The notes below the pieces were generated by a model, which worked only from the letters and a program-made list of their open reading frames with translations, was not told the origin of the DNA and did not search any database. The position numbers and the translations under genes were made by a program. This document shows, piece by piece, positions 1,963 to 31,830 of a stretch of DNA of 35,191 bases. How positions within the stretch are numbered: the stretch's first letter is position 1; the number at the start of each line of letters is the position of its first letter. The DNA comes from Candidatus Parcubacteria bacterium (GTDB taxonomy: Bacteria; Patescibacteriota; Minisyncoccia; UBA6257; 2-01-FULL-56-20), in contig DAIDLF010000028.1 of assembly GCA_027449645.1 (NCBI GenBank), positions 1 through 35,191 on the forward strand. The letters are read 5' to 3'.

Positions 1963-2991
1963 TTATCCATGCCGGACCTCCAGCACATCGCCATCCTGCA
2001 CTTCATATTCCTTCCCTTCCACCCGGAGCCAGCCCTTCTGCTTCGCCTTGCTCCATCCGCCCGCCTCGAGCAGCTTGTCGCATGCAATCACCTCAAGCCG
2101 GATGAACTTATGCTCAAAATCCGTATGGATGACGCCTGCCGCCTGCGGGGCCTTCGTCCCCCGCGCGATCGTCCATGCGCGCGTCTCGTCCTCGCCGGTC
2201 GTGAAGAAGCTGATGAGGTCGAGCACGGCATAGGATTTCCGGACGAGGTCCGGTACGCCGTTCACCTGGGCCACGTCGGAGGCCAGATCTATGGCGAGAT
2301 GGTCGCCGCCGAGCGCCGCGATCCTTTCGGAAAGCGCGGGCGGCACGTCGGATGCGGTGCCGTTCAGAAGATAAAGCTGGCGCTTGAGGGTAAGGAGGTT
2401 GAGGTCGGCAAGCCGCACGTTCTCCTCGAGCTCCTTCACGAGCTCGGCATCCGCGCGCGGCAGATCGCCCGCCTCAAGGATCTTTTTGAGCCGGCCAAGC
2501 AATTCGCGGTCCTGCACGGCCTCCTTCTTTCCCGTGCGCGCCTCCGACTCCGATTTTGCATACCGCTTCTCCACCGACTCCAGATCCTTCAGGATAAGTT
2601 CCTGGTTGATGATCTCCAGGTCGCGCACAGGATCCACGGAATTTTCCACGTGGATGATCTCGGGGTTTTGGAACACGCGGAGGACAATGACGATCGCCTG
2701 CGTCTCGCGGATGTGCGCGAGGAACTGGTTGCCGAGACCCTCGCCCTTGTTCGCGCCCTTCACGAGGCCCGCAATATCGTAGAACTCCACGACGGCAGGG
2801 ATCTTCTTTTTTGACCTGCTCAATTCGTTCAATTTTTCCAGCCGCTCGTCCGGCACCGTAACGATGCCCACATTCGGATCAATGGTGGCGAACGGGTAAT
2901 TCGCGATCACGATATCCTGCTTGGTGAGCAGTTTAAAAAGCGTGGATTTGCCGACATTCGGGAGACCGACGATGCCGATGGAAAGTTTCAT
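1963..2991 (-). CDS. ychF: Redox-regulated Obg-family ATPase YchF
   Basis: GIVGLPNVGKST, ANYPFATIDPN, DIAGLVKGA..GEGLGNQFL, and TGS domain RAWTI...APQAAGVIHTDF...EGKEYEVQDGD. Confidence 0.98.
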   Translation of the reverse strand: MKLSIGIVGLPNVGKSTLFKLLTKQDIVIANYPFATIDPNVGIVTVPDERLEKLNELSRSKKKIPAVVEFYDIAGLVKGANKGEGLGNQFLAHIRETQAIVIVLRVFQNPEIIHVENSVDPVRDLEIINQELILKDLESVEKRYAKSESEARTGKKEAVQDRELLGRLKKILEAGDLPRADAELVKELEENVRLADLNLLTLKRQLYLLNGTASDVPPALSERIAALGGDHLAIDLASDVAQVNGVPDLVRKSYAVLDLISFFTTGEDETRAWTIARGTKAPQAAGVIHTDFEHKFIRLEVIACDKLLEAGGWSKAKQKGWLRVEGKEYEVQDGDVLEVRHG

Positions 2992-3059
2992 GATGATCGT
3001 GCAATGAATAAGCAGCGAGAGAAACCGATGCCTACAGGAGTCAGTGTAAGAGAAATAGC

Positions 3060-3178
3060 GCCGTCCGGCAAGGAGGTCCGAACCCTAAACCAGTTTATTG
3101 GCGCCAAATTTGTCGTCATTTCCCGCACACGGAACTTGGCTGAAAAGGCCTGATTTGCTAAGGTTTTTTCCGGACGGC
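3060..3178 (-). ncRNA. Candidate rod-like structured RNA upstream of ychF (unassigned)
   Basis: Nested helices on the minus strand: GCCGTCCGG/CCGGACGGC, AACCTTAG/TTAGGGTT or AAATCAG/CTGGTTT, and GCCAAGTT/AATTTGGC. G.U pairs favour the minus strand. Confidence 0.3.
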
Positions 3179-3219
3179 ATTCCGGAGCCCCGCGCAAAGG
3201 ATAGATTTCCAGTTTCTCC

Positions 3220-3247
3220 TTGCGGCATGGTGCCCTCTTTTTATAAT
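3220..3247 (+). promoter_or_regulatory. sigma70 promoter driving the riboswitch-led operon
   Basis: TTGCGG-16 nt-TATAAT, about 25 nt upstream of the aptamer. Confidence 0.7.
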
Positions 3248-3270
3248 GAATAGGCATTGGATGCGGCGTC

Positions 3271-3463
3271 GCGGCAAGGGCAAGGCGGTCGCGTCCAAAA
3301 CAAAAGCCATAAAGGCTGGGGAACGGAGAAGCAGGTGAAAATCCTGCACAGTGCCGCTACGGTGATCTGCGCGCAACATCATGCAATGATGGCCTGCGTG
3401 CGGAAAGTCCGGTCGCCGCTCCCCTGCCGTAAACGTCTGACATTCCTCGAGCAAGGGAAAGTG
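3271..3463 (+). promoter_or_regulatory. Cobalamin riboswitch (short, class II / AdoCbl-variant-like)
   Basis: Core GAGAA-GCAGG-TGAAAAT-CCTGC-ACAGTGCCGCTACGGTGA, then P6 TCTGCGCGC/GCGTGCGGA and AAGTCCG. P1 pairs GCGGCA..GGCGGT with GCCGCT..TGCCGT. The L5 TGCCG is complementary to the downstream hairpin loop CGAGCA (kissing loop). Confidence 0.8.
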
Positions 3464-3500
3464 GATACGCATTGCCGGCTTCGCCGCCGGCACCGATGTC

Positions 3501-3533
3501 CCTTCTCTCGCCGAGAAGGTTTTTTATTTTTTT
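3501..3533 (+). terminator. Intrinsic terminator (riboswitch attenuator) upstream of the 3563 CDS
   Basis: CCTTCTC-TCGCC-GAGAAGG followed by TTTTTTATTTTTTT, 30 nt before the ATG. Confidence 0.85.
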
Positions 3534-3562
3534 AAGATCACCCAATTCCCTCACCTCTCCCC

Positions 3563-5689
3563 ATGAACGAAGTCCTGAACCCGGAACTGGAAGAAGCCTG
3601 TCGCGAGACCATCCCCGAAATCGAATTGCGGGAGCAGGTTCCGGAGCGCGATCCCGCAGAGGAAGGCGCGGAGCTTTCGCCATCGCCGAAAAACGAAGAA
3701 GGCGAAAAATCCGGAACCGCATCCGGCCTCGATCTCGTGCTTGAGCGGCACGGGGGTGCCGAAGAGGACTGGAAGATCACCTACCACGAGAGCGGCCATC
3801 GTTTTGATCCCGAGGCCCGGGAGCTGCTCGACGAGCACGGGAAATCGCTCACGAAGGAAATAGAGACGTCGGACGACAATATGTCTGCCGAGAAGATCGC
3901 GGAGCATTACCGGATGCTCGATCATTTCCAATCGAACCCCGACAAGCCCTATCTCCTCCCCGACTGGGTGGAGCAGACCCAGCACGGCGAGGTGATCCAT
4001 TCCACCATCGTCACGCTCGACGAGAACAACATATTCCATTATGAAACGCGATCGCACGAGGTAATGGCGGATGAGCCGGAAGAAGAGGATGCGCGCGAAG
4101 AAGTCCAAGAAGCGCCGGAGGCGGGCATCCTTTCAGATGAAATTCCCGCTTCCGATGATGCCGCAGAAACCGTGGCCAGCATCCCGGTGCTCAGGATCGA
4201 TCTCAATGAAAAGATCCTCGGGTCCCTTTCGGCAGAGCAAGCATATAGTGCAACAGCCGAAACGGCGCCGATCGAGGAAGATATTCTCCCCGCGCTCCAT
4301 GAAAATCCCCATTACGAGACTGCGCCGCATGAAGTTCTTGCGACCATAGGAAAGGATGATGGCACATCGGAAGATGCAGGTCCCGAAACCATGGAGCAAT
4401 CCTCTGTCGCGGCTGAAGCGACGTTCATGGAGATCGCGCCCGCGGAGGCGGTTGGTGCCGAAGCCGCTCCCGAAACGGCAGAAGGGGGAGCGATAACGCA
4501 GGCTGATGGGGCGGCGGCACAAGAGATAAGTCCAATCCCAGAGACAAGCGCAGAAATGCCGGTAGCAGAAGCGGAGGAAGATGGCCAAATCCATCGCTTG
4601 CCCGAAACCGTGATGGCTCCTCGTGAGACAAGCGAATCTATGCCGGCAGACGGCACTGCCGAAGCCGAAACGCTTTCCGAAGCAGTCCTCGAACCTGCAT
4701 CGAGAGAGAAAGAAGGGTCAGAGGCAGAAACAACGGTCGGAAGCGCAGCGGCAGGAGAAAATACCCCCCGGGCCGAAACTGGGGCCGAAACCAGAACTGA
4801 GGCTGAAATTGAAATGTACCCTGCAGTCCATACTGCAGAAACCAGAGAAGCTGTCCAAGTTATGAAATCCTCGGCTGAAAAGGCAGGCGCGACGAATGAA
4901 AGCGAAGTGGAAAGCGCAGAGGCGCAAGCCATTGCCCACAAGACCGCGGCGCGCGCCGGGGAATCGCATCCTCCTCTCCAGGAAAATGCCGACATCGCCA
5001 AATCAGCGGAAAGTTCGACTGACAGGCCGGCAGTAAAAGAAAAAAATGCACCGATCGAGGCTGTCTCCCATGAAGACGCACCGGACTCCGCAGGGCACGA
5101 GATGACTGGTCCCGAAGAAAACGCGTGGACACGGGAAGTGATTGCCGCGCCGCAGGAAAAAACTCTCCCGCGCGAAGCAATCGCCATTGCGCAAAAGCCG
5201 GAGGCGGCGCAACAAGAATCGGCGGTTACCGTCGAGGCCTCCTCCACTGCCCCCGCCGTCGAGGCCCGCGTCATCGCCGCCGGCACTGCCACCGAACGTG
5301 CTGCTTATCCTGAACATGAAAGCGCGGCACTTCCGGAAAGTTCCGCCGAGAAAGATTCTGATATCGCCATCGAGGCATCTGCCGAAGCATCCAACCGCAC
5401 GGAAACGGCGGCAGCGGAAGGGATGACTGGAAGGGAGGTTTTATTGCGGTCGCTCGGTATCGTAACGGAACGGCGGAGCGCAGGTGCGGGCGCGGAGGCG
5501 AAAACGGGCGCGGCCGAGACCCTGGCTCCTTTCACCGTCACCGCGGCCCGCGCGGGCGCGGCAGCGGGAGCACAGACTGCCGGAGCGAACCAATCAGCCG
5601 GGTCACGGCAGCGGGAACAGGAGCTGAAACCGCGCGAACGCGCGAGTGGCACTTCCCTCAACGGGATCACCTTGCGCCGGGCGGCATGA
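3563..5689 (+). CDS. 708-aa acidic Glu/Ala/Thr-rich, largely disordered hypothetical protein
   Basis: Long ORF following the attenuator. About 165 aa of mixed-composition N-terminus, about 480 aa of low-complexity acidic sequence, and an Arg-rich C-terminus ending TLRRAA. No signal peptide or TM helix. Confidence 0.85.
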   Translation: MNEVLNPELEEACRETIPEIELREQVPERDPAEEGAELSPSPKNEEGEKSGTASGLDLVLERHGGAEEDWKITYHESGHRFDPEARELLDEHGKSLTKEIETSDDNMSAEKIAEHYRMLDHFQSNPDKPYLLPDWVEQTQHGEVIHSTIVTLDENNIFHYETRSHEVMADEPEEEDAREEVQEAPEAGILSDEIPASDDAAETVASIPVLRIDLNEKILGSLSAEQAYSATAETAPIEEDILPALHENPHYETAPHEVLATIGKDDGTSEDAGPETMEQSSVAAEATFMEIAPAEAVGAEAAPETAEGGAITQADGAAAQEISPIPETSAEMPVAEAEEDGQIHRLPETVMAPRETSESMPADGTAEAETLSEAVLEPASREKEGSEAETTVGSAAAGENTPRAETGAETRTEAEIEMYPAVHTAETREAVQVMKSSAEKAGATNESEVESAEAQAIAHKTAARAGESHPPLQENADIAKSAESSTDRPAVKEKNAPIEAVSHEDAPDSAGHEMTGPEENAWTREVIAAPQEKTLPREAIAIAQKPEAAQQESAVTVEASSTAPAVEARVIAAGTATERAAYPEHESAALPESSAEKDSDIAIEASAEASNRTETAAAEGMTGREVLLRSLGIVTERRSAGAGAEAKTGAAETLAPFTVTAARAGAAAGAQTAGANQSAGSRQREQELKPRERASGTSLNGITLRRAA

Positions 5690-5720: not shown

Positions 5721-7397
5721 ATGGCCGACTTCAAAAAGATCCCCTACTACAGTCTCCGCGCGGAAGCGCTCATCGGCACCCTGCCCGTGCTGATCGGCCG
5801 CGCACAGGAGCAGGAGCGGCTCACGCGCGTCATCAACCGCCGCATCAACAACAACGCGCTGATCGTCGGCCCGAGCGGGATCGGCAAGACGACGTTGGCC
5901 TACGGCTGGCTCAAGCGCCTGAGCGAACAGGAAAAATATGACAACCTCCAGCTGATCCAATTCGACACGGATCATTTTTACGGCATCGACGAGGCGATAG
6001 GCGGCGCAAATGGCGGTGCAGGCAAGGTCTACCGCGAAGCGCTCGCATCATTGCCGCCCTGCGTGCTCTTCATCGACAACTTCGGCCGCGCCATGCGCCA
6101 GAGCTCCAGCTTCGTGCACCAGGTGATGCGCCTCTATGATATGACCCTCAAGAAGCCGGACGTGCGCATGGTGATCGCGCTCCAGCCGCAGGAATACGCG
6201 TGGCTCGAACGGGAGCATCCCGCGTTCGTCCAACTCTTCGAGACGGTCCTCCTCAAGCCGCAGACGTCGGCGGAGTACGTGCGCATTTTGGAGACGGCGC
6301 TCCCCCGCCTCAATCACGAGCACCGCATCATCATCCCCACGCAGTCGCTGCAGGAGATCGTCGCGTATGCCGAACGCTTCCCCGCGCTCGGACAGCTGCC
6401 GCGCTCGGCGATCAGCCTCCTTGACGAAGGCATCGCGTTCGCGGCGGCGAGCGGCCGCAAGGAGCTGATGGGCAACGGCGTGGCGCAGGTGGTGGCGAGC
6501 AAGACCGGCATCCCGGTGAGCCAGCTCAATCCCGACGAACTCGCGTCGCTGAAGGAGCTGGAGCAGAAGCTCGGCGAACGGATCATCAGCCAGTCCGGCG
6601 CGATCGCGAAGATCGCCTCCACGCTCCAGCGCGCCAAGCTCGGCATCCGCAATCCACAGAAGCCGCTCGGCTCGTTCCTGATGCTCGGCCCGTCCGGCGT
6701 GGGCAAGACGGAGACGGCAAAACTGATCGCAGAGACAATGTTCGGCCGCAGCGAGAGCTTCATCCGGTTCGACATGTCCGAGTTCGCGCAGGACCACACC
6801 GTCCAGCGGCTGATCGGCGCGCCCGCCGGCTACACCGGCTACGAACAGGGCGGCGCGCTCACGAACGCCCTGCACGCGGAACCGCACTGCCTCATCCTGC
6901 TCGACGAGATCGAGAAAGCGCATCCCAAAATTTTTGATATCTTCCTCCAGGTGCTGGATGACGGCCGCCTGACGTCCGGCCAGAACGAGACCGTCGACGC
7001 CTGCAACGCGATCATCATGGCGACCTCGAACGTCGGCGTGGAGGAGATCCTGAAGGCCGCCGCCGCGGGCGAGACCGACCTGAACCGGCCGGAATTCATC
7101 CAGGAAAAGATGCTCCCCTTGCTCGCCGGTGCGTTCCGCCTTGAATTCCTGAACCGGTTCGACAGCATCCTTATCTTCAACCCGCTCAGCCTGCCGGGGC
7201 TCGTGCAGATCGCCCAGCTCGAGATAAAGAAGATCGAGCGGCGGCTGGCCAAGCACAACGTGCAGTTCACGATCGATCCCGCAGTGCTCGAGGAAAAGAT
7301 AAAGACGATGACCGACCCGCGCTTCGGCGCGCGCCCGGTGAAGCGCTTCATCGAGGAGACCTGCGAATCGCTGCTCGTGCAGTCGCTGTTACAATAA
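5721..7397 (+). CDS. ClpA/ClpB-family (Hsp100) AAA+ ATPase lacking N- and M-domains, with degenerate D1
   Basis: D1: LIGR..E, GPSGIGKT, LFIDNFG. D2: PLGSFLMLGPSGVGKTE, RFDMSEF, LIGAPAGYTGYEQGG, LLDEIEKAH, LDDGRLT, TSNVG, EFLNRFD, FGARP. Confidence 0.93.
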   Translation: MADFKKIPYYSLRAEALIGTLPVLIGRAQEQERLTRVINRRINNNALIVGPSGIGKTTLAYGWLKRLSEQEKYDNLQLIQFDTDHFYGIDEAIGGANGGAGKVYREALASLPPCVLFIDNFGRAMRQSSSFVHQVMRLYDMTLKKPDVRMVIALQPQEYAWLEREHPAFVQLFETVLLKPQTSAEYVRILETALPRLNHEHRIIIPTQSLQEIVAYAERFPALGQLPRSAISLLDEGIAFAAASGRKELMGNGVAQVVASKTGIPVSQLNPDELASLKELEQKLGERIISQSGAIAKIASTLQRAKLGIRNPQKPLGSFLMLGPSGVGKTETAKLIAETMFGRSESFIRFDMSEFAQDHTVQRLIGAPAGYTGYEQGGALTNALHAEPHCLILLDEIEKAHPKIFDIFLQVLDDGRLTSGQNETVDACNAIIMATSNVGVEEILKAAAAGETDLNRPEFIQEKMLPLLAGAFRLEFLNRFDSILIFNPLSLPGLVQIAQLEIKKIERRLAKHNVQFTIDPAVLEEKIKTMTDPRFGARPVKRFIEETCESLLVQSLLQ

Positions 7398-7407
7398 CCA
7401 CACCGCC

Positions 7408-7749
7408 ATGGCCCAAAACCACGCACCAAACAACGAACATCTCTCATCGCCCGAGGCGCCCGCAACGGCACGCGGCGCGAAGACGCCGATGACAACTGCC
7501 GAGCGGCTGACGGTCGCCGATGCGGAGCGCATGGAGACCAATCGCTATGAGATGCTTGAGGTCGTGGAGGGCTACTTGAGCGAACCGTTCAAGAAGTCGG
7601 TGCGCGAGAAGATCCGGCGCGAAAAGGAACGCCTGCTTGCCTTCGTGTCCTATGAGAAGCAGGTGCAGGACGCGGCAAAGAGGATCGTGCGCGTGCTCAA
7701 CCCGGCGTATTTCGTCCATAAGCCGCTCGATAAAACTATGTTCGAATAA
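7408..7749 (+). CDS. Small charged helical hypothetical protein
   Basis: 113-aa ORF filling the gap between the Clp and VirD4-like genes (10 and 30 nt spacers) with host-like codon use. Confidence 0.75.
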   Translation: MAQNHAPNNEHLSSPEAPATARGAKTPMTTAERLTVADAERMETNRYEMLEVVEGYLSEPFKKSVREKIRREKERLLAFVSYEKQVQDAAKRIVRVLNPAYFVHKPLDKTMFE

Positions 7750-7779: not shown

Positions 7780-9066
7780 ATGTCATCCGTCACCATCGGC
7801 ATCAACGAATTCCGCAACAAGCTGACCTCCATCCAATTCAAGGACGAGGACCGTTTGCGGCACATGTACATGATCGGGAAGACCGGCGTCGGCAAATCGA
7901 CAATCTTCCAAAACATGTGCCTGCAGGACATCAAACAGCACCGCGGCGCGTGCTTCATCGACCCGCATGGCGAATCGATCGACTGGCTGCTCAAGCGCAT
8001 CCCGGCGGACCGCATGGAGGACGTGATCCTTTTCGACCCGAGCGACGCGGAGTTCCCGTTCGGCCTCAACCTGCTCGAGGCGAAGAGCGACTGGGAGCGC
8101 GACTTCCTGGTGAGCGAGGTCATCCAGATCTTCTACAAGCTCTTCGATCCCGACCACACGGGCGTGATCGGTCCCCAGTTCGAACACTGGCTCCGCAACG
8201 CCGCACTCACCGTGATGGCGGGACCGGGCGGCGGCACGATCATCGAGATCCCGCGGCTCTTCGTGGACGCCGGCTTTGAGGCGGAAAAGCGCCGCCACCT
8301 TACCGACCCGCTCGTGATCGATTTCTGGACGAAGCAGATGGCGAAGACCTCCGATTTCCACAAGAGCGAGATGCTCAATTACTTCATGTCCAAGTTCGGC
8401 CATTTCACGAACAACGCGCTCATGCGCAACATCATGGGCCAACATGAAAGCAGCTTCGACTTCGATTCCGTGATGGATGGCCGCAAGATCCTCCTCGTCA
8501 ATCTTTCCAAGGGAAAGATCGGCGAAATGAACGCGCACATCCTCGGCCTGATCCTCGTGGCAAAATTACAGGCCGCCATTTTGCGCCGCGCGCGCCAGAG
8601 CGGCGGCGAGCGCACGCCGTTCTATCTCTACGTGGACGAGTTCCAGAACTTCATTACCGATTCCTTCATCAGTTTGCTCAGCGAGTCGAGGAAGTACGGC
8701 TTAGGCGTGCACCTTACGAACCAATATCTCGCGCAGCTGCCCGCCGCCCTGCGCGATGCCGTGCTGGGCAACGTGGGCACGCTCCTCTCTTTCGAAGTAG
8801 GCGCCGAGGATGCCGAACTGCTCACCAAAGAGTTCGATCCGTTCACCCTGCACGACTTCATCGGCCTGCCCCGGTTCCATTTCTATATAAAACTGATGAT
8901 CGACGGCAAGACGAGCAACGCCTTCTCCGGCGTCGGACTGCCGCCCGAACCGCCCGCACCTGCGAGCGATGCGATCGACGGTGCCGTGGCGATCGTCAAC
9001 CGCCTGGCCTACGGCACGCCGCGCGTGCTCGTGGAAGAGATGATCAGGCGGGAGCTGGCGCAGTAG
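7780..9066 (+). CDS. Soluble VirD4/TrwB/TraG-like (DUF87/HerA-FtsK superfamily) ATPase
   Basis: RLRHMYMIGKTGVGKS (Walker A), FIDPHG, FGLNLLE, ILLVNLSKG, YLYVDEFQ (Walker B), SESRKYGL...NQYLAQL, GNVGT. No TM segment. Confidence 0.92.
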   Translation: MSSVTIGINEFRNKLTSIQFKDEDRLRHMYMIGKTGVGKSTIFQNMCLQDIKQHRGACFIDPHGESIDWLLKRIPADRMEDVILFDPSDAEFPFGLNLLEAKSDWERDFLVSEVIQIFYKLFDPDHTGVIGPQFEHWLRNAALTVMAGPGGGTIIEIPRLFVDAGFEAEKRRHLTDPLVIDFWTKQMAKTSDFHKSEMLNYFMSKFGHFTNNALMRNIMGQHESSFDFDSVMDGRKILLVNLSKGKIGEMNAHILGLILVAKLQAAILRRARQSGGERTPFYLYVDEFQNFITDSFISLLSESRKYGLGVHLTNQYLAQLPAALRDAVLGNVGTLLSFEVGAEDAELLTKEFDPFTLHDFIGLPRFHFYIKLMIDGKTSNAFSGVGLPPEPPAPASDAIDGAVAIVNRLAYGTPRVLVEEMIRRELAQ

Positions 9067-9080
9067 TGCCCTGAAATATT

Positions 9081-10289
9081 TTATTTTTCGGCGTTATAGA
9101 TCTGCTGGATCTCGGATGCGGAAAGGACGCGATTATAAACGCGAAAATCGTCAATGAGGCCTACGAATTGATAGGCCAGAGTGCTGTAATTCCCCATATA
9201 AAGGTTGGGCCCATCAAAAGAGGCCGTACCCGGTGCTGAGGTTTGGCCATCAAGGACCCCATTAGCATAGAGCTTCAGGGAAGCGCCATCATACGTTCCT
9301 ACGATAAAATACCAGATTCCCGGGGTAAGGGTGGTATTCCCTCCAACACTCTGTTGAACGCCATTGATGCGCGCAGAAAAATAATCCTTACCAGCATTAT
9401 CCGCAAGATAAGGAAGAGCAAAACTGGCGAATATCTGCAAACCAGAACTGCTTGCGGGATTGATCCATCCCATCATGGTGAACCCCTGACTCATTGAAAC
9501 ACCCGAGGTGACCCCGTTCGCAAGCACATAGCCCGAGGTAAACTGAAGACAGCTCGATCCGAGTTTACAAGCAGACCCCGATTGCCATGTGGGGAGAGTC
9601 GTCCCCGTGAGTGTTCCGTTGGCTCCATGACCGCTCCAGTCAAGCGTGCTGCTGCCCGATCCTTCATCAAGCGGCCAGTAGCCCACGAGGCCTCGTCCGG
9701 TACTAGGAAAAGTGGAGGCTCCAGACCCTACCTCCGCAAGCGCAGGATCGGCACCTCCCGCGGAACTCGATTTTGCATATTTCATTGATTCCATGAAGGC
9801 AGAGATTCCATATTGGGTGCCGTTCGTGGCATAGGTGTAATAAAGATTGCTTGAGGTTTGGTTTGTGGGATCTACGGGGAGATTGGAAAGAGGGCTGCCT
9901 GCGGAGATAGTGGAGAGGTTCACCGGGATCCAGCCGGTTGAAACCGCGCTGCGATTAGTGGAAGATGCCGCACAATGGTAGGTCCAGGTAGAAGAAGGCA
10001 TACCCAAGCCTTGGCATTGGTCACCGAGAGTAGACGTAGCAGAGGTGTCGAAGGTTGAGATATAGCTGGTGGTAGCCGTGCCAAGAGAAAAACTTGATGC
10101 AGCGGATTGGTCCGTCACATAGAGATTCAAAGCTGAGTTCAGGGTGGCAAGATCGGAGACCCGGTTCGCATCGCGGGATTGGCGCAACAGCTCTGCGGGG
10201 TTCAGGGTCAAAACCACCACGACCGCAAGGATCGCGATGATGGCGATCACGACGAGAAGCTCAATGAGGGTGAAGGCAGAGCGTTTCAT
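9081..10289 (-). CDS. Type IV pilin-like protein with C-terminal LamG/ConA-like lectin domain (copy 2)
   Basis: Prepilin motif MKRSA|FTLIELLVVIAIIAIL, SRDANRVSDL, LPVDP; LamG motifs GLVGYWPLDEGSG, WYFIVGTYDG, FVGLIDDFRVYNRVLS. Confidence 0.93.
   Translation of the reverse strand: MKRSAFTLIELLVVIAIIAILAVVVVLTLNPAELLRQSRDANRVSDLATLNSALNLYVTDQSAASSFSLGTATTSYISTFDTSATSTLGDQCQGLGMPSSTWTYHCAASSTNRSAVSTGWIPVNLSTISAGSPLSNLPVDPTNQTSSNLYYTYATNGTQYGISAFMESMKYAKSSSAGGADPALAEVGSGASTFPSTGRGLVGYWPLDEGSGSSTLDWSGHGANGTLTGTTLPTWQSGSACKLGSSCLQFTSGYVLANGVTSGVSMSQGFTMMGWINPASSSGLQIFASFALPYLADNAGKDYFSARINGVQQSVGGNTTLTPGIWYFIVGTYDGASLKLYANGVLDGQTSAPGTASFDGPNLYMGNYSTLAYQFVGLIDDFRVYNRVLSASEIQQIYNAEK
10174..10277. 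repeat. Near-identical pilin N-terminal coding block, copy A
   Basis: Matches 11434-11537 at an offset of 1260 nt, including identical runs 10174-10199 and 10219-10262. Confidence 0.9.
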
Positions 10290-11570
10290 TTATTTCTCGG
10301 CGTTATAAAGCGCCTGGACTTCTGCCGAAGAAAGCGCGCGGTTATAAAGACGAACGTCATCAATGATGCCTGGGAAAAGATTACTGCCGCCCCGCGATCC
10401 AATCGTGAAGGGAATCGTATTGGCCCCAGGTGGATAGGCCCAAGATACCGGGGCACCCGCAACTCCATCTCGATAGGCAATAACTTGCGTTCCATTGAAA
10501 ACTCCTGTGACGAAATGCCAATTCCCGTCACCAATCGCACCTCCGGTTGCCGTACCGCTGTTGCCATTCGCTCCTGAACGGATATTGAACGTAATACCTC
10601 CCATGTAATAACCCAGATCAAAACCACAGGTTCCCGCGCCGACAGTGCATCCGCCATATTCAGCGCCAATACCGTTATATGACGAATTGGGCACTGGTAT
10701 CCTTATCCATGCCGCAACCGTAAGGTTCCCAACAAGCGCAGTGCTTGCACTGCTCGTAACCATCACATAATTCGTGGTTCCGTCAAAGTTTCCTGCCCAT
10801 CCCCCCACCTTTGCATTGCTCGTATAATGGCTTCCGGCTATCATCGATCCATTCCATGCCCCGTTATTCCCATTGCTCGTCTGGTCGTAAGCGATGGTGC
10901 CAGATCCTTCGTTAAGCGGCCAGTAACCGACGAGACCAGCCGGGTCAAAGAGGGAAGAGACGCTGGGAGTGCCTCCGAAGATGACCTCGGGGAAGAACGT
11001 GTCTTGGGGTAAGGCACCATATTGCGCTTTGTACTTCTGAGATTCAAGGTCGGCAGTGACCACAAACTGGGACCCATTCGTATTATAGCTGTAAAAAAGA
11101 TTGGAACTCGTCTGATTCACGGGATCTACGGGAAGATTGCCCAAAGGAGGGCCGGAGGAGATGTTCGAAAAATTCACCGGAATCCAGCCGGTCGTCGTCG
11201 CGTTGCGATAGGTGGAGCTTGCGGAGCATTGCCAAGATTGTCCAGTGCCTAAAGTAGGGAGAGCGAGGCCCTGGCATTGGTCACCCGCCGTACTCGTGGC
11301 CGAAGAGTCATAGACCGAAGGATAAGTGGCGTTTGCGTTCCCTAACGAGAAGGAAGAGGCCCCTGACTGGTCCGTGACATACAGATTGAGGGCGCTGTTC
11401 AGCGTCGCCATGTCGCTTACCCTATTCGCGTCACGGGATTGGCGCAACAGCTCTGCGGGATTCAAGGTGAGGACCACGACGACCGCAAGGATCGCGATGA
11501 TGGCGATCACGACGAGAAGCTCGATGAGGGTGAAGGCGCGACTTTTGCCGTGCGCATTATAAAATGCCAT
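10290..11570 (-). CDS. Type IV pilin-like protein with C-terminal LamG/ConA-like lectin domain (copy 1)
   Basis: KSRA|FTLIELLVVIAIIAIL, GLVGYWPLNEGSG, WHFVTGVFNG, FPGIIDDVRLYNRALS. Its stop codon abuts the ATG of copy 2. Confidence 0.93.
   Translation of the reverse strand: MAFYNAHGKSRAFTLIELLVVIAIIAILAVVVVLTLNPAELLRQSRDANRVSDMATLNSALNLYVTDQSGASSFSLGNANATYPSVYDSSATSTAGDQCQGLALPTLGTGQSWQCSASSTYRNATTTGWIPVNFSNISSGPPLGNLPVDPVNQTSSNLFYSYNTNGSQFVVTADLESQKYKAQYGALPQDTFFPEVIFGGTPSVSSLFDPAGLVGYWPLNEGSGTIAYDQTSNGNNGAWNGSMIAGSHYTSNAKVGGWAGNFDGTTNYVMVTSSASTALVGNLTVAAWIRIPVPNSSYNGIGAEYGGCTVGAGTCGFDLGYYMGGITFNIRSGANGNSGTATGGAIGDGNWHFVTGVFNGTQVIAYRDGVAGAPVSWAYPPGANTIPFTIGSRGGSNLFPGIIDDVRLYNRALSSAEVQALYNAEK
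11434..11537. repeat. Near-identical pilin N-terminal coding block, copy B
   Basis: Matches 10174-10277. Confidence 0.9.
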
Positions 11571-11593: not shown

Positions 11594-12466
11594 CTATATC
11601 CCGAAGATCCGCTGCGCGTTCGCCCAGATCTGCGCCTTCATTTCGTCCGTGGAAACGCCTTTGAGCTCGGCGAGTTTTGCGACGGTGTGCACCACGAATG
11701 CCGGCTCGTTGCGCTTGCCGCGGAACGGTACGGGTGCCACGTAGGGCGCGTCGGTCTCGGACAAGATGCGGTCGGCCGGGATCGCGGCGATGGCGGCATC
11801 GTAATCGCGCGTAAAGGTGACCACGCCGCCGAAGGTAAAGGAATAACCGAGCTCAAGCAGCGCCCGCGCATCGTCCGGTGTGCCAGTGAAGAAATGGATG
11901 ATGCCGGGCGGCAGGCCGCCGCCGCCGTGCTCGCGCAGGATCGGGATCAGGTCGTGGAACGCGTCGCGACAGTGGATCATGAGCGGCTTCCGCACCTCAC
12001 GCGCGAGGGCGATCTGCGCCAAAAAGGCGTCCTTCTGCTTGCGCACCTGTTCATCGCGCGGTTCGTCGTCGCTGAAATGAAAATAGTCCAGGCCGCATTC
12101 GCCGATGGCGAGCGTCTTCGGGTGCAGCGCGAGCGTACGGTAATAATCGTGATCAAAGACCTCGCCGCGCGACGTGAACGCTTTCGCGGCCTCTCCCCCG
12201 CCGAGCTCCTTCTCGTCGTGGAATGACTTGCTCGTGTGCACCGGATGCAGCCCGATGACGGCATAGACGCCATACTCGATCTCGTCCGCCAGCTCCACGG
12301 CACGGCGCGACGTGTCGCGCTGGGTGCCAACGTTCACCACATAGACATCGGCCTCGCGGGCGTGCGCCAAGACCGCGGCGCGGTCGGCGTCAAACAGCGC
12401 AAACTGCGCATGAGTGTGGGCATCAAGAAAATGCATATCGGAAGATGAAGGTTCCATGGTGAACAT
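11594..12466 (-). CDS. tatD: TatD family deoxyribonuclease
   Basis: DAHTH, IGLHP, AIGECGLDY, IHCRDA, IIHFFTG, ETDAPY, RGKRNEP. The start may be up to 30 nt downstream. Confidence 0.95.
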   Translation of the reverse strand: MFTMEPSSSDMHFLDAHTHAQFALFDADRAAVLAHAREADVYVVNVGTQRDTSRRAVELADEIEYGVYAVIGLHPVHTSKSFHDEKELGGGEAAKAFTSRGEVFDHDYYRTLALHPKTLAIGECGLDYFHFSDDEPRDEQVRKQKDAFLAQIALAREVRKPLMIHCRDAFHDLIPILREHGGGGLPPGIIHFFTGTPDDARALLELGYSFTFGGVVTFTRDYDAAIAAIPADRILSETDAPYVAPVPFRGKRNEPAFVVHTVAKLAELKGVSTDEMKAQIWANAQRIFGI

Positions 12467-20925: not shown

Positions 20926-23037
20926 CTATTGGCAGAAGCTGGGCTTGGTGGTGGTCGCCGTCAACGCGCCGTTCACCGTATAGATATATTCAAGCGTCGT
21001 CGTATTCACCGAATCGTATCCTTCCATACAGAAAGCCTTGGTAGAAGTGCCAATCTCCAAAGAATTGCCGCCGAGAAATGTCGCTGCTGTACTGCTGTTC
21101 CCAATTGTCGCGGTATTATTTCCATTGCCCGTCGCATTTGCACCGATTACGATTTCGTTAGTATCCCCGCTTGCCAAGGGATAAGCCTCATAACCGATAT
21201 CCACGGCGTAATTAGTGGCGGCATTAGATGCCCCAGTGGAAGTGAGAAGTCCGGCGTTATCTCCGATTCCAATATTAAACGAACCGGCTACATTATTTTC
21301 CAATGCTTGATATCCAATTCCCGTATTCTGGGCACCCGTATCATAAAAGAGGGCATTGTTCCCCACTGCAGTATTGTTTGTTCCAGTGAGATTAGAACCG
21401 AGCGCTCCCGTACCGAAGGCCGCGTTATTTTGGCCAGTCGTATTGTTTTGGAGAGAAGCGTAGCCGACCGCAGTATTAAATCCTCCCGTCGTATTCCCCC
21501 GAAGAGCATAGAAACCGATCCCGGTATTTCTTGTACCGGCCGTATTGAGTTCAAGGGAATAATAACCCAGAGCAGAATTGGTGCCCCCGGTAGTATTATA
21601 AGCCAATGATTTGAATCCTACGGCAGTATTGCTTGTCCCAGTAGTATTTGATCCAAGAGAATTAGCGCCCACTGCCGTATTGTATAGTCCCGTGGTGTTA
21701 TTCTGCATACTTTCATATCCGATGGCAGTCTCATATCCGCCCGCGTCATTAGCCAGCGCGAGAGACCCGAGTCCTATGCTATCCCCGGATGTAATAATGG
21801 GGATGCCGCTGAGGGTTGTCCCCATATTTGCCGCCGTGATCACCGAAGAGGGAGACGAGGCATTTTGTATGGCTGATATCGAGTTTGCGACATTTTTTGC
21901 CACTATCATATATCCATTCGCCCCATAATGGAGATAGTCCGTCCCCACGAAAGAAGTGTTTGCGGCGTATGACGACGCCGTAGTGCCCGCGTATCCGCGT
22001 ATTGCAGAGGTGATGGTATTGCCGGATATGGCGGAAACATAAATTTGCTCGCTCCCGATAGTGAGAATCTGGCCCACATAAGGAGCATTGAGCGTAGGCG
22101 TCACGCTGAAACTTGTCGAGGCCGCGCCGATCGCCGCCGTGAGCGTTCCCTTGAAGTCGACGGCGCGCAACGAATAGGGTGGAATGCAGTTGTTGTAATC
22201 GATCACGTCGGCAGGAATCGATGGATTATAAGAGTTGAGCAGTATGTTCCTTATATCAAGATAATGGCCTGTTGGGCCATACGTCGAAGAAAGCGCGCTG
22301 TTGATCTGTTGGACGTCGGCCAAATTGGCACTGGCACAATTTTCCCCTTCTCCGTTCACCACGGACAAGACCAGATAGTTCCCGTTTTGGGTCTTTGCTA
22401 CCATGCTCGCGATATCGCTCAATACCGTGCCGGTAGCGGTCAGATTGTTTCGGCCCGCCCATATTACCGTAAACCAGGGCCATGTACTCGACGCCGCGAG
22501 AAAACGAGATGCTATTTGGCTGCTTGTTTGACCCCCGACGCCGAAATCACGGACATTCGGACCGGGAAGATACTGATTGAGCAGGTTAGGATAGGTGTAA
22601 CCCGTATAGTCCTCGTCTCCCAGCGTCAAGCTGTCTCCCCATGCGCCGATGTTCATTGCGCTCACAATAGAAGAGGTGTTGGCGTAGGATATCGCTCCCC
22701 CGCACGTCGTCGTCGTCACCGCGCCAGCGGCGCTTACAGCAAGACAAGGAGAGCTTGAAGCGGCGAGCGAGGTGATGGCAAGATTATTGACGGTCGTCGT
22801 CGCTCCGATGAGCGTGATCGTGCTGCTCGGATTTCCGATATTGATCGTGGTCGCCGTGGACGTTCCAATGGCGATGGTGCCCGTGGCATCAATGATGACG
22901 CCGGAATCCCCAATGATCGTGTTATTGGAAAAATCCAACGCGGCAAACGCCATGGGGACGCCGATAATAAGAGAGATGGCTGCGACAATAGAGAGAAAAA
23001 GCGGAATGCTTCGGAAGGATCGTTTCTCAGAGTCCAT
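20926..23037 (-). CDS. Secreted/anchored SGNH-hydrolase plus beta-solenoid repeat adhesin
   Basis: N-terminal hydrophobic signal; SGNH blocks WGDSLT, GVGGQTS, WAGRNN, DYLH; then 17-aa NTAVG..SL..NTTG repeats and an NEIVIG...NTATIGN neck-like segment. Confidence 0.85.
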   Translation of the reverse strand: MDSEKRSFRSIPLFLSIVAAISLIIGVPMAFAALDFSNNTIIGDSGVIIDATGTIAIGTSTATTINIGNPSSTITLIGATTTVNNLAITSLAASSSPCLAVSAAGAVTTTTCGGAISYANTSSIVSAMNIGAWGDSLTLGDEDYTGYTYPNLLNQYLPGPNVRDFGVGGQTSSQIASRFLAASSTWPWFTVIWAGRNNLTATGTVLSDIASMVAKTQNGNYLVLSVVNGEGENCASANLADVQQINSALSSTYGPTGHYLDIRNILLNSYNPSIPADVIDYNNCIPPYSLRAVDFKGTLTAAIGAASTSFSVTPTLNAPYVGQILTIGSEQIYVSAISGNTITSAIRGYAGTTASSYAANTSFVGTDYLHYGANGYMIVAKNVANSISAIQNASSPSSVITAANMGTTLSGIPIITSGDSIGLGSLALANDAGGYETAIGYESMQNNTTGLYNTAVGANSLGSNTTGTSNTAVGFKSLAYNTTGGTNSALGYYSLELNTAGTRNTGIGFYALRGNTTGGFNTAVGYASLQNNTTGQNNAAFGTGALGSNLTGTNNTAVGNNALFYDTGAQNTGIGYQALENNVAGSFNIGIGDNAGLLTSTGASNAATNYAVDIGYEAYPLASGDTNEIVIGANATGNGNNTATIGNSSTAATFLGGNSLEIGTSTKAFCMEGYDSVNTTTLEYIYTVNGALTATTTKPSFCQ
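21250..21732 (-). repeat. About 9-10 tandem 17-aa (51-nt) beta-solenoid repeats, xxNTAVGxxSLxxNTTG
   Basis: Visible in translation: LYNTAVGANSLGSNTTG, TSNTAVGFKSLAYNTTG, GFNTAVGYASLQNNTTG and others. Confidence 0.9.
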
Positions 23038-27375: not shown

Positions 27376-30300
27376 CTAGAGGGATTTCAGAAGGCTTTCA
27401 AGCTGACTCAGCATGCCCTGGAGCGATTGGCTCACGATCGCCGTCTGATTGCTCGTGTCGGTCGCGGCCGCGTGGAACAATCCTCCGGTGACCGGCGTAA
27501 GGATCGGCTTGATGATCGGAAGCGGGGCAATCGTGACAGGGCTCACGGTCGCGCTTACCTGCGAGGAAGGCGTTCCTACGAGGCCGTTCATATCCTGTGC
27601 GGCAACGGCGTAATAGTAGGTTCCCGCCGCGAGCCCCGAGTCGGTATATGAGAGCACATTCCCCTGCACGATCCTGTTGGAAGCGCTCGGCGTAAAGTTT
27701 GGCGTGGTGCTGCGGTAGATGTTATAGACCCCTATACCGTTCGTCGCCGTGGCCGCCGACCAGGAGAGGGCCACCGCCGTGCCATTCGCGGTTGCGGAAA
27801 GATTCTGCACCTGGGACACGGTCGGCTGGACCGTCACCGGAGCACTGTTGCAGACGGTCATGCTGCAGCCATTGCTCTCCAGCACCGTATGGCCGCCATA
27901 CGGGCAGTACGGCATGATGTCCGGACATGCCACCGGAAGCTTCGGCGCGCTTGACCCTACGGTCATGTTGTTCCCCAGGATGATGAAGCTTTGATTCGCC
28001 ACGGTGGCGTAGTTGCCCCCGAAGCTGCCGCTCAAACCGAGATCCAGCGCCCCGGATGCCGAAGGGGCGATATCAGCGACATAGGTGAGCACCACGCTTC
28101 CCCCGTTCGGAATGCTCACGGTCTGGTTGAAGAACACGTTTGCCTGGGCACCGGTCACGCCTCCGGCTGAAAGATTGGCGACACTCCCAAGCAACGTGGA
28201 GCCGTTATACACCCTTATGTTCGAGAGTGAGCTTATCGCATTCGCGCTGTTCGAGCCCGCGCCGACGTAGGTGAGGTTCACCGGGCCGCCGGCCGCGGAG
28301 AACTTGACGCTTGCGAAGGTCACGCCCGACTGGCCCGCCGATACGGTCTGCGATGCAGGGGTGGAGGCATCAAGGCCGGCGCTCAGCGTACCATAAGCGG
28401 AAGCGGCAGGCGGATTGATGGTGAGCGTCACCGGAACAGTCTGATAGGTGGACAGCGAGGAGTTGATGATGAACACCGTGCCCGAGTAGGTGCCTGCCGA
28501 AAGGCCTGAGGTGTTGGGCGTAAAGGTCGCCGACGTGAATCCTCCGCCATTGGTGGTTGTGTCCATCTTCATCCATCCGCAGTTGACGCTTCCGTTCACG
28601 ATTGCGTTGCAGTTCCACGAGACCTGCCAGCCGATCGGCAGACTTGGGCTGAAGGTGAGCGTCTGCGCGGCAGGATTCGCCCCGCCCTGGGTCCCGGTGA
28701 ACGAGAGCGCACTCGGAGCGATGGTGGGGTTCTGGGATACGGCGGACGTCACCGTGATCGGGATGGTCTTGGTCACCTGCGTGGTAAGGGCCGGATATTG
28801 CGCGCCGCAGATATTCGTCTGCGAACAATACAGGGAAACGCTCAAGCTATAGGTTCCCGCAGTCGATGCGCTCGGCAGGGTCACCTGCCACAATCCCGTT
28901 GCGCTGTTATAGCTGCCGTTTGCCCAACTCACGTACGACGTCGATCCCTGCGGATACAGATACGCCTGCACATTGAAGCCGCGGGCAGAGGTTGCGGGCT
29001 GCCCTCCCGGAGCGGCACCCGTACTGCCCGGAGAGGCGATGCCATTCAGCGTGAACAAAATCGACTGATTCGGCTGATACGATGACTGTATCCCCGAGAT
29101 GTCCGTGATAGAGAGCGAAGCCTGCGACTGCTGGCCGGCGACAATGGAGAACGGCGCCGGGCTCTGCGCATAATCGTAAGGGTTCACGTATTGCTTCACT
29201 ATCTGGACGTAATATGCCGATCCCGGAGCCAATGTGGCCCCGTTGGTCACCGTGCCCACATTCCAATTGAGCTGCGTGGTGCCATATACCTCGCCCGCAA
29301 TGCCGGCCGCGCTGCCGTTGGCTTGCGTAATGAATACGGTATAGGTGGCATTGGAAGATCCGGCGCTGTCCGACCATTTGATGGTCTGTGTGCTGCCGAG
29401 CGGCCACTGTTCCCCTCCTGCCGGAGCAAGGATATTGATGGTATTGCCGGTTGACGGATTCACCGTAACGTCTGCCGTGAGCGGCATGGATGCCCCGTAA
29501 TCAAGCTGGCCCACTGCCTGGATGGATACCCCAGTCTGGTTCATGAACTGCAGGACATCCGTCCCATTCATGGCAACCGGACGGGCCACATCCCCGCAGG
29601 TAAACGTATGGCCGTTCGTGATATCAAAGATCGTAAGGCCCGTGACACAGCCCACAGTGAAATCGGCATTGCTGGTCCCTGAAAGCGAGCCCGGAATGTT
29701 CCAGGAGAACGTCACCTCGCCCGAACCGTTCACCGAGGTCGGCGATACCGAAAACGACGGCGTGGTGCCTCCTGTCCCTCCCGCGCCGCTCAGGTTGACC
29801 ACGGTAATGGGCGCCTGCTGTTGGGCGGAAAGCGTAAGGGAGACCGCCGAGTTGTCCGTGCCATCATAGTACGAGAAGTCGGCGTTATTCTGGATGGTGG
29901 CGACGACGCTCTGGGCGACATTCGGCGAAGAAGGAAGCCTGCTCAGATCGCCCCACACTGAAAGCGAATAGGAGCTGCCCGCAGGGATGATCAGCGGGTT
30001 GGCATGCGGCAGGAAGGTCCACGTGATCCGGTTTCCGGATATGGAGGACTGCGCCATGCGGTCGGCGGCAACAATATCATTACCGTTCGGGTCATGGAGC
30101 ACCACGGAATTCAGGAATGATTGCGCATGAGAGGCGCTGCCGCTGAAGCTCAGCGTGAGGCTATTCGGGACGGCATCCCCGGCGGCATTGGCCGTAAGAT
30201 TGATGCTGCCGAGCTGCTCAAAAGAGGCCGGAGGCATGGACGCCACCGACTGGCCGGCAAGCGTGAGCGCCGTCCGCACCACCGTGACAGGAGCCGCGGC

Positions 30301-31710: not shown

Positions 31711-31830
31711 TGTTTTTTTGCGGATAAACGACCATGGCCCCTGACCAGGGAGCCGTAAATATTTGTTGCCATTATTAAACCACGCCAGGAAGACGGCGCG
31801 CAAGCAGGCTGTGCATAACCGCAGGATCCG

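Follow-up and report, generated by a model that had tools for sequence, protein, structure and literature searches.

Contig DAIDLF010000028.1 of a Candidatus Parcubacteria bacterium carries, at positions 3301-3533 of its forward strand, what is very likely a Cbl-II-type riboswitch whose best family is that of adenosylcobalamin (AdoCbl), acting as an OFF switch by intrinsic termination, so that a four-gene operon would be expressed only under B12 scarcity. The contig was analysed whole, as a stretch of 35,191 nucleotides that we call the window, and it belongs to a 665,599-base, 40-contig Patescibacteria genome with a completeness rating of 85%. The four genes encode a long acidic protein (gene 1), a Clp/Hsp100-like double AAA+ protein (gene 2), a small helical protein (gene 3) and a VirD4/TraD/HerA-type P-loop ATPase (gene 4). 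We are highly confident of the RNA part, which appears to be a new member of a well-known family with a textbook mode of action.

Aptamer and expression platform

At Rfam gathering thresholds the window contains two matches, a tRNA at 53-124 on the reverse strand and the AdoCbl riboswitch aptamer (RF01482) at 3301-3469 on the forward strand. The aptamer match covers all of model positions 1-149 with a score of 56.6 bits (cut-off 50; E 5.6e-08), and our own covariance model of related leaders, R1, gives the window leader 74.6 bits. An earlier note on this DNA, written from its letters alone, had proposed a complete cobalamin riboswitch at this site, and the covariance models bear it out.

In the cmscan alignment, P1 of the window aptamer is one continuous helix with two mismatches, and the J6/3 'B12 box' string reads AAAGUCCGGUC; across our leader alignment (A3), the AGTC of this junction and the next G are invariant or almost so. 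A P2 arm and a long P6 extension are both missing, and P6 carries just a short hairpin. In the part of PMC7367189 available to us, Cbl-II riboswitches are defined by the lack of a P2 loop-stem-loop between P1 and P3 and by a P6 with no more than a simple stem-loop. By those definitions the predicted fold is a compact Cbl-II architecture, within which subclasses IIa and IIb are not distinguishable.

The loops L5 (UGCCG) and L13 (CGAGCA) are complementary through U3352-A3453, G3353-C3452, C3354-G3451, C3355-G3449 and G3356-C3448, which makes five pairs round one bulge. The strings on which the earlier note had based its reading all lie where it placed them: TGCCG at 3352-3356, CGAGCA at 3448-3453, TGCCGGC at 3473-3479, GCCGGCA at 3486-3492, GAGCAAGGGA at 3449-3458 and TCCCTTCTC at 3499-3507.

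Downstream of the aptamer, a terminator scan finds a single site, a hairpin of seven pairs at 3501-3519 followed by TTTTTTATTT; the U-run directly 3' of the hairpin is UUUUUUAUUUUUUU, with at least six U. Folding of 3430-3535 gives a minimum free energy (MFE) of -37.0 kcal/mol (z -3.74), which 0 of 200 shuffles equal, and the MFE structure contains an antiterminator helix that takes up L13 bases 3448, 3449, 3451 and 3452 together with both terminator arms. A transcript cut at 3512 already folds this helix. Forcing P13 while leaving L13 unpaired gives a best fold of -32.9 kcal/mol that has the terminator hairpin 3501-3519; the antiterminator helix has an advantage of 4.1 kcal/mol over this P13-plus-terminator state. 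The leader carries the marks of an intrinsic-terminator platform, namely a hairpin, a U-run and a mutually exclusive alternative helix. The earlier note had drawn its antiterminator from the same segments in a slightly different register and had argued that ligand should switch the leader OFF by termination, a prediction with which the modelled alternative states are consistent.

These folds suggest how the switch would work. Without ligand, the 3' half of P13 and L13 (3439-3469) would pair with 3494-3521, consuming both terminator arms, and polymerase would read into the ATG at 3563. By analogy with established cobalamin riboswitches, bound corrinoid would stabilise the L5(UGCCG)-L13(CGAGCA) kissing interaction and keep P13 closed; with P13 held closed and L13 outside the helix, the 3501-3519 hairpin with its U-tract would form. 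The four-gene operon would thus be expressed only under B12 scarcity. We consider the element real beyond chance mainly because the aptamer, L13, the terminator and the downstream genes recur in related loci, with covariation.

Leaders in related genomes

Related loci were collected through gene 4. In a search of one genome per species, the best 80 of 478 confirmed relatives (51-89% identity) form the basis of the locus counts that follow, in which L and G numbers are our handles for loci and genomes. The Clp-like gene lies directly upstream of gene 4 in 70 of the 80 loci, and setting aside the 15 of these with less than 1.5 kb of upstream DNA leaves 55 informative loci. A motif screen had turned up 33 leaders, from which we built R1, and we searched it over the 80 loci on both strands. 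In the informative loci it gives 48 strong matches (43.6-119 bits) and five weak ones (14-21 bits), with none in the remaining two; all matches share the strand of the operon and precede the Clp-like gene by 756-3471 nt. The ten loci without the Clp-like gene, whose gene 4 is at 51-57% identity, have no R1 match.

A caveat is that R1 matches its 33 training leaders by construction, and the fairer test is the 15 further strong matches. Rfam, applied at its own cut-offs to 11 of these 15, confirms four (L071 and L070 as RF01689, L047 and L062 as RF00174), and it also confirms four of the five weak matches, all as RF01689. The sister leaders are split over three Rfam families, RF01482, RF01689 and RF00174. 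Two leaders missed by both R1 and Rfam, at L057:4110-4200 and L054:375-460, show by eye an RF01689 (AdoCbl-II)-like core with an extra hairpin in L4; no tool confirms them. Position 3318 of L067, taken up by the first regex screen, proved to be false, as it falls within a coding region, and the model search gives 2793-2957 instead. Operon-bearing records L041, L043, L044, L045, L060, L073 and L082 are labelled 'uncultured Gammaproteobacteria bacterium' and many others 'Saccharibacteria', labels that look unreliable.

Among the window's close kin, 3 of 61 genomes have an RF01482 match, the window's own genome counted. The leader of the congener G021 scores 66.7 bits with RF01482 and precedes all four genes in the same order, and G063 has a weaker aptamer match (33.8 bits) ahead of an 877-aa gene-1 homologue and a Clp-like gene.

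The alignment used for covariation holds 56 leaders and was fitted to part of the tested structure, which favours that structure. Standard pairs occupy 77.8% of its cells, compared with 67.1% in shuffles and 27-50% in slid controls; the covariation score is 0.276 (0.111 in shuffles) and is reached by 0 of 500 shuffles, and changes on both sides occur at 22 of 30 pairs. P4 is paired in 90% of cells, with both-side changes in four of its five pairs. P5 is paired throughout (UA in 43 leaders, AU in 13), as is the base of P6, whose middle pair is GC in 24, UA in 23, CG in 8 and AU in 1. The P1/P3 helix is paired in 47% of cells, but it is poorly aligned (A4) and hence uninformative; MAFFT with RNAalifold did not recover it.

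The five pairs of the kissing loop are formed in 99.2% of cases. At one of them 48 leaders have G-C and three have A-U; L13 is CGAGUA in the three leaders whose L5 is UACCG, and in L083 and L088 L5 carries an additional GUA, for which L13 has a matching GCAUA. The bulged base is A, C or U. This pairing and compensatory change back the kissing loop that the earlier note had proposed, and the covariation support, in a loop that varies so little, appears real but thin. In the related leaders the L13 segment also pairs more stably with the 5' half of the terminator than shuffled segments do, at a mean z of -2.2, and 21 of 45 lie below -2.

The operon and its B12 context

Coordinates of the leader features and of the four genes are collected in Table 1. 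The operon unit is taken as four genes because the next genes are convergent to it.

Table 1. Leader elements and operon genes in the window
Feature	Position	Strand	Basis and remarks
Possible -10 box TATAAT	3242-3247	+	By eye; TTGCGG at 3220-3225, 16 nt upstream; unproven
Cobalamin aptamer with P13	3301-3469	+	Rfam RF01482
P1/P3 closing helix, 5' strand	3314-3324	+	Pairs with 3418-3428; 9 of 11 standard pairs (cmscan alignment)
P4/L4 hairpin, GCAGG UGAAAAU CCUGC	3331-3347	+	cmscan alignment
P5 (A3350-U3358, G3351-C3357) with loop L5 UGCCG (3352-3356)	3350-3358	+	L5 read from sequence
P6 with short hairpin extension	3360-3411	+	29-nt insert relative to the Rfam model
J6/3 'B12 box' region, AAAGUCCGGUCGCC	3404-3417	+	Aligns to consensus AAGUCAGGUC
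Inner P13 hairpin with loop L13 CGAGCA (3448-3453)	3443-3458	+	Kissing partner of L5
Antiterminator helix (3439-3469 with 3494-3521)	3439-3521	+	MFE fold; encloses the spacer hairpin
Spacer hairpin UGCCGGC/GCCGGCA	3473-3492	+	-14.1 kcal/mol; in both alternative folds
Intrinsic terminator (hairpin 3501-3519 and U-tract)	3501-3533	+	Terminator scan
Gene 1, 708-aa acidic protein	3563-5689	+	Net charge -95, 21% D+E; mostly disordered-looking, low complexity
Gene 2, 558-aa class-I Clp/Hsp100-like double AAA+ protein	5721-7397	+	Pfam AAA_2 186.6 bits, ClpB_D2-small
Gene 3, 113-aa small helical protein	7408-7749	+	Conserved C-terminal YF.(Q/H/K)K motif
Gene 4, 428-aa soluble VirD4/TraD/HerA-type P-loop ATPase	7780-9066	+	Pfam matches

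Gene 1 has a folded N-domain at about residues 55-170 and a conserved end, ...MTGREVLLRSLGI...LNGITLRRAA, and matches no Pfam, NCBIfam or PADLOC family. In 54 leaders the same slot holds one long acidic open reading frame (ORF) between the riboswitch and the Clp-like gene, of 237-1134 aa and 13-29% D+E. The products end in AA in 33 of the 54 and in A in 42, with endings such as ...RRAA, ...KIAA, ...LAA and ...MAA. An AF2 model of residues 45-175, made from a 51-row alignment, is of high confidence and of mixed alpha/beta structure (pLDDT 90.3, pTM 0.80). Foldseek against the PDB gives this domain only weak PAS-like rows (best E 0.038), and we assign it no fold. VIA-align against 48,161 chains reaches a best Z of 5.4, under the noise level of 7-8, and the ESM Atlas holds no usable match for the N-domain or for gene 3. 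A word-indexed protein search with the N-domain, too insensitive for a fast-evolving family, yielded from 426 candidates nothing beyond the query itself and a single protein of 96% identity. Judged by its sequences, gene 1 is a real, fast-evolving family.

In gene 2 the D2 motor is intact (LILLDE, GAPAGYTGY) and the D1 Walker B reads VLFIDN. Gene 3 has no family match in Pfam, NCBIfam or PADLOC; an ORF occupies its slot in 35 of 37 other leaders examined, and F102 is invariant in a 29-row alignment (A7). Gene 4 is matched by TrwB_AAD_bind (27.5 bits, cut-off 20.5) and TraG-D_C (22.7 bits, cut-off 22) and begins at its NTPase domain, with Walker A at residue 33 and Walker B at residue 282. It has no N-terminal hydrophobic segment, the sole 19-residue window with a Kyte-Doolittle mean of at least 1.6 being internal, at residue 250, and no PDB sequence matches it at E 0.01 or better. 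PADLOC matches only the generic AAA and P-loop cores of the operon (mad8, HerA, PDC-M37B, DolB) and neither gene 1 nor gene 3. A complex prediction for the products of genes 3 and 4 with the C-terminal 100 residues of gene 1 returned 'no answer' (score 0.00, mark 0.32), which speaks neither for nor against an interaction.

The earlier note had pointed to B12-dependent enzymes as something to look for in the genome, and one is present, an RTPR-like ribonucleotide reductase with an ATP-cone (TIGR02505, E 5.5e-91; 305.8 bits, under the cut-off of 340). The genome also encodes a PduO-type adenosyltransferase (104.8 bits) and a 162-aa membrane-anchored DUF4430 protein. Given this set of B12 genes, AdoCbl is the most likely ligand. 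The DUF4430, PduO and RTPR-like genes lie at G000:C1:3349-3573 (-), G000:C23:5575-6039 (-) and G000:C14:6312-6596 (-), and none has a riboswitch match. No PF02310 B12-binding domain and no CobA/BtuR was found in this 85% complete genome, in which absence is not established, and FecCD (BtuC-type) reaches only 20.4 bits against a cut-off of 26.5. Deoxynucleotide synthesis is the sole evident B12-dependent step in the genome.

The window leader is the only cobalamin-riboswitch match in the 665,599 bases. In five other operon-bearing genomes the operon leader is likewise the sole match to R1 in all five and to RF00174 in four. A class II reductase is found in six operon-bearing genomes, RTPR-like in G149 and G150 and past the NrdJ_Z cut-off in G063, G151, G152 and G153. 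Within about 8 kb of the operon such a reductase occurs in 4 of 80 loci, at L065:9540-12809, L069:3686-4980, L032:1422-3680 and L045:11641-13905, of which L065 and L069 are near-identical. NrdR-NrdJ lies directly downstream of the operon in L065 and L069, and in L032 the RTPR-like gene ends 80 nt before the riboswitch. We do not count this as linkage, as four in 80 is roughly twice the chance expectation and unconvincing.

In G035, a related genome in which the operon is missing, RF00174 finds a cobalamin riboswitch at L006:4871-5038 (G035:C3; 34.7 bits), with a terminator. Behind it, at L006:5173-7029, lies a gene for a 619-aa surface-type protein with a squalene-cyclase-like alpha/alpha toroid and DUF4430, a domain pair that we take to be that of B12-binding transcobalamin-like proteins. 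By this analogy the 619-aa protein is likely a B12-capture surface protein. Because this riboswitch precedes a different gene, B12 sensing in the family is not tied to one target.

The logic of an OFF switch implies that the four genes are wanted when B12 is short, and the operon may belong to a response to a lack of B12 and consequently of deoxynucleotides. The two ring ATPases might take hold of the acidic protein by its conserved ssrA-like C-terminal tail and unfold, thread or deliver it. Whether the purpose is B12 acquisition, deoxynucleotide or DNA salvage, or a dormancy response, we cannot say, and we make no choice among these. One elaboration, which we put forward as doubtful, is a B12-starvation machine: loss of AdoCbl would stall the only ribonucleotide reductase, and the Clp-type unfoldase and the soluble coupling-type ATPase would then thread or pass the acidic protein, recognised by its ...AA tail, to the cell's type IV secretion or DNA-uptake apparatus, obtaining B12 or deoxynucleotides from the host bacterium. 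If true, this would add a new class of member to the B12 regulon and give a first function to the 'orphan' coupling-protein homologues of Patescibacteria.

Around the operon, the possible promoter lies in a block, TTTTTATA(A/C)TGAATAGGCATT, common to the window and G021; a promoter scan with a stricter rule finds no site. The sequence of the spacer hairpin is not kept in G021. An 89-aa ORF with no family at 2988-3257 (-) overlaps the putative promoter and may be no gene. Convergent to the operon, at 9081-11570 (-), are two tandem pseudopilin-like genes (N-terminal methylation motif and Laminin_G_3), followed by a TatD DNase gene at 11594-12466, neighbours that are not kept at the other loci examined. 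Elsewhere the window encodes a 703-aa ORF without a Pfam match (20926-23037, -) and a 1475-aa ORF whose only recognised domains are peptidoglycan-binding and Kre9/KNH-like Ig (27376-31803, -). Its other genes include a split transketolase, RpiB and Rpe. A Pfam scan of 43 flanking ORFs from 10 loci found no shared neighbour, and no type IV secretion system gene is among the scanned window ORFs or the 10 flanks.

Alternatives and known systems

Several observations weigh against a B12-responsive terminator that serves this operon. RF00174 gives the window leader 30.6 bits, just short of its cut-off of 31.5. A single terminator site is not above shuffles (mean 1.2), and the terminator alone is insignificant. 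The script that finds a hairpin and T-run in 45 of 50 related leaders mis-assigned several and failed on five. Seven of the 11 scanned non-training leaders reach no Rfam cut-off, so that their assignment comes from R1, itself built from sister leaders, and because the sister leaders span three families the Rfam label is a weak guide to ligand selectivity. The sequencing-run search listed no RNA run, only four DNA runs, each with a share of at most 0.09. None of the four proteins looks membrane-bound or transporter-like, and none has a detectable B12-related domain; in this the earlier note, which had remarked on a downstream gene with no known B12 link, was right. The reductase search in G021 gave weak fragments only. 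The chief counter-evidence comes from the family itself: 118 of its 121 genomes lack the operon, which is dispensable there though the reductase logic should apply to them too.

The choice of ligand is where an alternative has the most room. The aptamer might sense another corrinoid (methyl- or hydroxocobalamin, pseudo-B12 or another cobamide), with the mechanism unchanged, and we consider this unlikely. It would accord with the hydroxo-/methylcobalamin-binding subclass that the Cbl-II architecture includes, according to the available part of PMC7367189, and with the best scores of orthologous leaders, which go to RF01689 (AdoCbl-II) in six loci and to RF00174 in two, so that the class boundary crosses the group. 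GAGAA in place of GGGAA points the same way, and the earlier note had taken such departures from the consensus as signs of a different selectivity or even a different ligand. The tests possible from sequence do not support that step. GAGAA is limited to the window species and G021, the remaining leaders having GGGAA or GGAAG, and the deviant L5, whose UGCCG is the lineage norm, is accounted for by its covariation with L13 and so gives no reason to expect another ligand. RF01482 is the best family for the window leader, and a genome with a PduO adenosyltransferase and an AdoCbl-type reductase has AdoCbl as its physiologically relevant form. Since structural class does not always predict selectivity (PMC7367189, in the same part), the sequence cannot settle the ligand either way, and AdoCbl stays the most likely candidate.

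Other readings change what the element does or whom it serves. The four genes could be an accessory cassette, possibly mobile or anti-phage, to which B12 control is a side issue. Their distribution is patchy enough for this: the gene-1 N-domain occurs in 3 of 121 genomes of the family and close gene-4 orthologues (at least 71% identity) only in those same three, yet both are found in many distant Patescibacteria lineages, while gene-4 paralogues (41-48% identity, ORFs of about 420-930 aa) are in all 121. The flanking genes differ at all 10 loci examined, and PADLOC reports the domain-level matches given above. Those matches are restricted to generic cores, however, no integrase, transposase or repeat was seen in the flanks of the operon, in the window or at the 10 loci, and the riboswitch stays with the operon in essentially all informative loci, which suggests that the B12 signal matters to the use of the operon; we judge a cassette of this kind quite improbable. 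Control that is mainly translational, or dual, with the ligand-bound fold hiding the ribosome-binding region and termination secondary, is very unlikely. In many sister leaders the first ATG is just 5-30 nt past the start of the T-run, and there the terminator stem could overlap the ribosome-binding region. In the window, by contrast, the ATG at 3563 is 43 nt past the U-tract start, 3534-3562 has no evident Shine-Dalgarno sequence and lies outside both alternative helices, and a canonical hairpin with a run of at least six U is present. We give still less credence to a terminated transcript that acts in trans, as a B12-dependent small RNA or protein sponge, with the downstream operon incidental. 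The eut-associated RF01482 members of Enterococcus and Listeria are such B12-dependent small RNAs or sponges, RF01482 is the best Rfam family here too, and a start near the putative -10 box would yield a stable terminated RNA of about 270-280 nt. Yet in 53 of the 55 informative loci, from many Patescibacteria lineages, the leader directly precedes this operon, the other two having the by-eye variant; it is always on the operon strand, with a start codon just past the terminator, and an ANTAR-type regulator was not seen, though no search was aimed at one. That the leader is a decayed relic which no longer regulates is scarcely credible. It clears the Rfam cut-off by only 6.6 bits, its RF00174 score is under the cut-off and its P1 has two mismatches, but compensatory changes keep the core helices and the kissing loop over 56 leaders, in which the terminator and the L13-complementary segment persist as well.

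If the terminating riboswitch is accepted, its value lies in what it is attached to. Riboswitches reveal what a cell links to a metabolite, and in these genomes of less than 1 Mb (relatives range over 0.5-1.3 Mb) the only B12 switch guards an unexplained two-motor operon, not a transporter, a biosynthetic gene or a B12-independent isozyme. To our knowledge the controlled genes have no counterpart in described B12 regulons, which comprise transport, biosynthesis and B12-independent isozymes. The operon thereby gains a testable condition of expression, B12 shortage, and so do Patescibacteria coupling-protein homologues encoded away from secretion loci (PMC12102498, in the part available). It also offers a clue to how organisms cope with scarcity when they rely on a host for their B12 and still use a B12-dependent reductase for DNA precursors, and the window leader is a compact natural OFF switch native to Patescibacteria. 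In the open-access literature no paper came up that connects a cobalamin riboswitch with Patescibacteria or with the four-gene operon, and the accessible parts of PMC10409787, PMC4508563 and PMC11665869 have nothing on the pairing of riboswitch and operon. The last of these, in that part, names riboswitches as promising candidates for gene-expression control in Patescibacteria.

The proteins resemble known machines with parts removed. Gene 2 shares with class I Clp/Hsp100 proteins (ClpA, ClpB, ClpC, ClpV) its two AAA+ modules and D2-small domain; its D2 aligns to ClpC and ClpB at E ~1e-92, and residues 13-557 align to ClpA 177-721. At 558 aa, however, it has neither an N-domain nor the ClpB middle domain, its D1 Walker B has DN in place of DE, and a motif check finds no IG[FLM] tripeptide, the ClpP-docking motif. 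All NCBIfam equivalog scores are far under their cut-offs (ClpB TIGR03346, 376 against 1232 bits; TIGR02639, 346 against 993 bits), and by sequence gene 2 is best described as a member of the Clp/Hsp100 superfamily only, not a ClpA or ClpB equivalog. The gene-1 tails recall the ssrA (transfer-messenger RNA, tmRNA) degron and other ...AA tags read by ClpX and ClpA, in that they end in ...AA and an unfoldase gene adjoins. They differ in that the tail is encoded and not added by tmRNA, and the adjoining unfoldase, which may recognise it, has no ClpP-docking loop. Gene 4 has an NTPase domain above the Pfam cut-offs for type IV coupling proteins (VirD4, TrwB, TraD), whereas its 428 aa include no membrane anchor, no type IV secretion locus is linked to it in the ORFs scanned, and the NCBIfam TraD models score 45 bits (cut-off 366) and 38 bits (cut-off 648). 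According to the available part of PMC12102498, whose main text contains 'riboswitch' and 'Clp' zero times, many of the coupling-protein homologues in Patescibacteria are encoded away from virB4. Gene 4 differs from those homologues in always coming together with a Clp-like gene and a riboswitch.

The RNA, in turn, is close to its models. The yvrC leader of Bacillus subtilis, an OFF type of Firmicutes, controls B12-related genes, whereas the target in the window is an operon without known function, and the yvrC aptamer differs by a P2 arm and another linker. In yvrC, ligand-stabilised kissing of L5 with a platform loop decides between terminator and antiterminator, as it would in the window, and the yvrC leader responds to AdoCbl in vivo (PMC7367189, in the part available). 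With the Cbl-II riboswitches (Rfam clan CL00101: RF01482, RF01689) the window leader shares the four-way junction P3-P6, the J6/3 'B12 box', the missing P2 loop-stem-loop, the short P6 hairpin and an L5-L13 kissing interaction that links the aptamer to the platform, by the class definitions in the same part of PMC7367189. It stands apart from them in the GAGAA of the window species, where others have GGGAA, and in its L5/L13 pair UGCCG/CGAGCA, whose five pairs and one bulge are near-invariant in the lineage.

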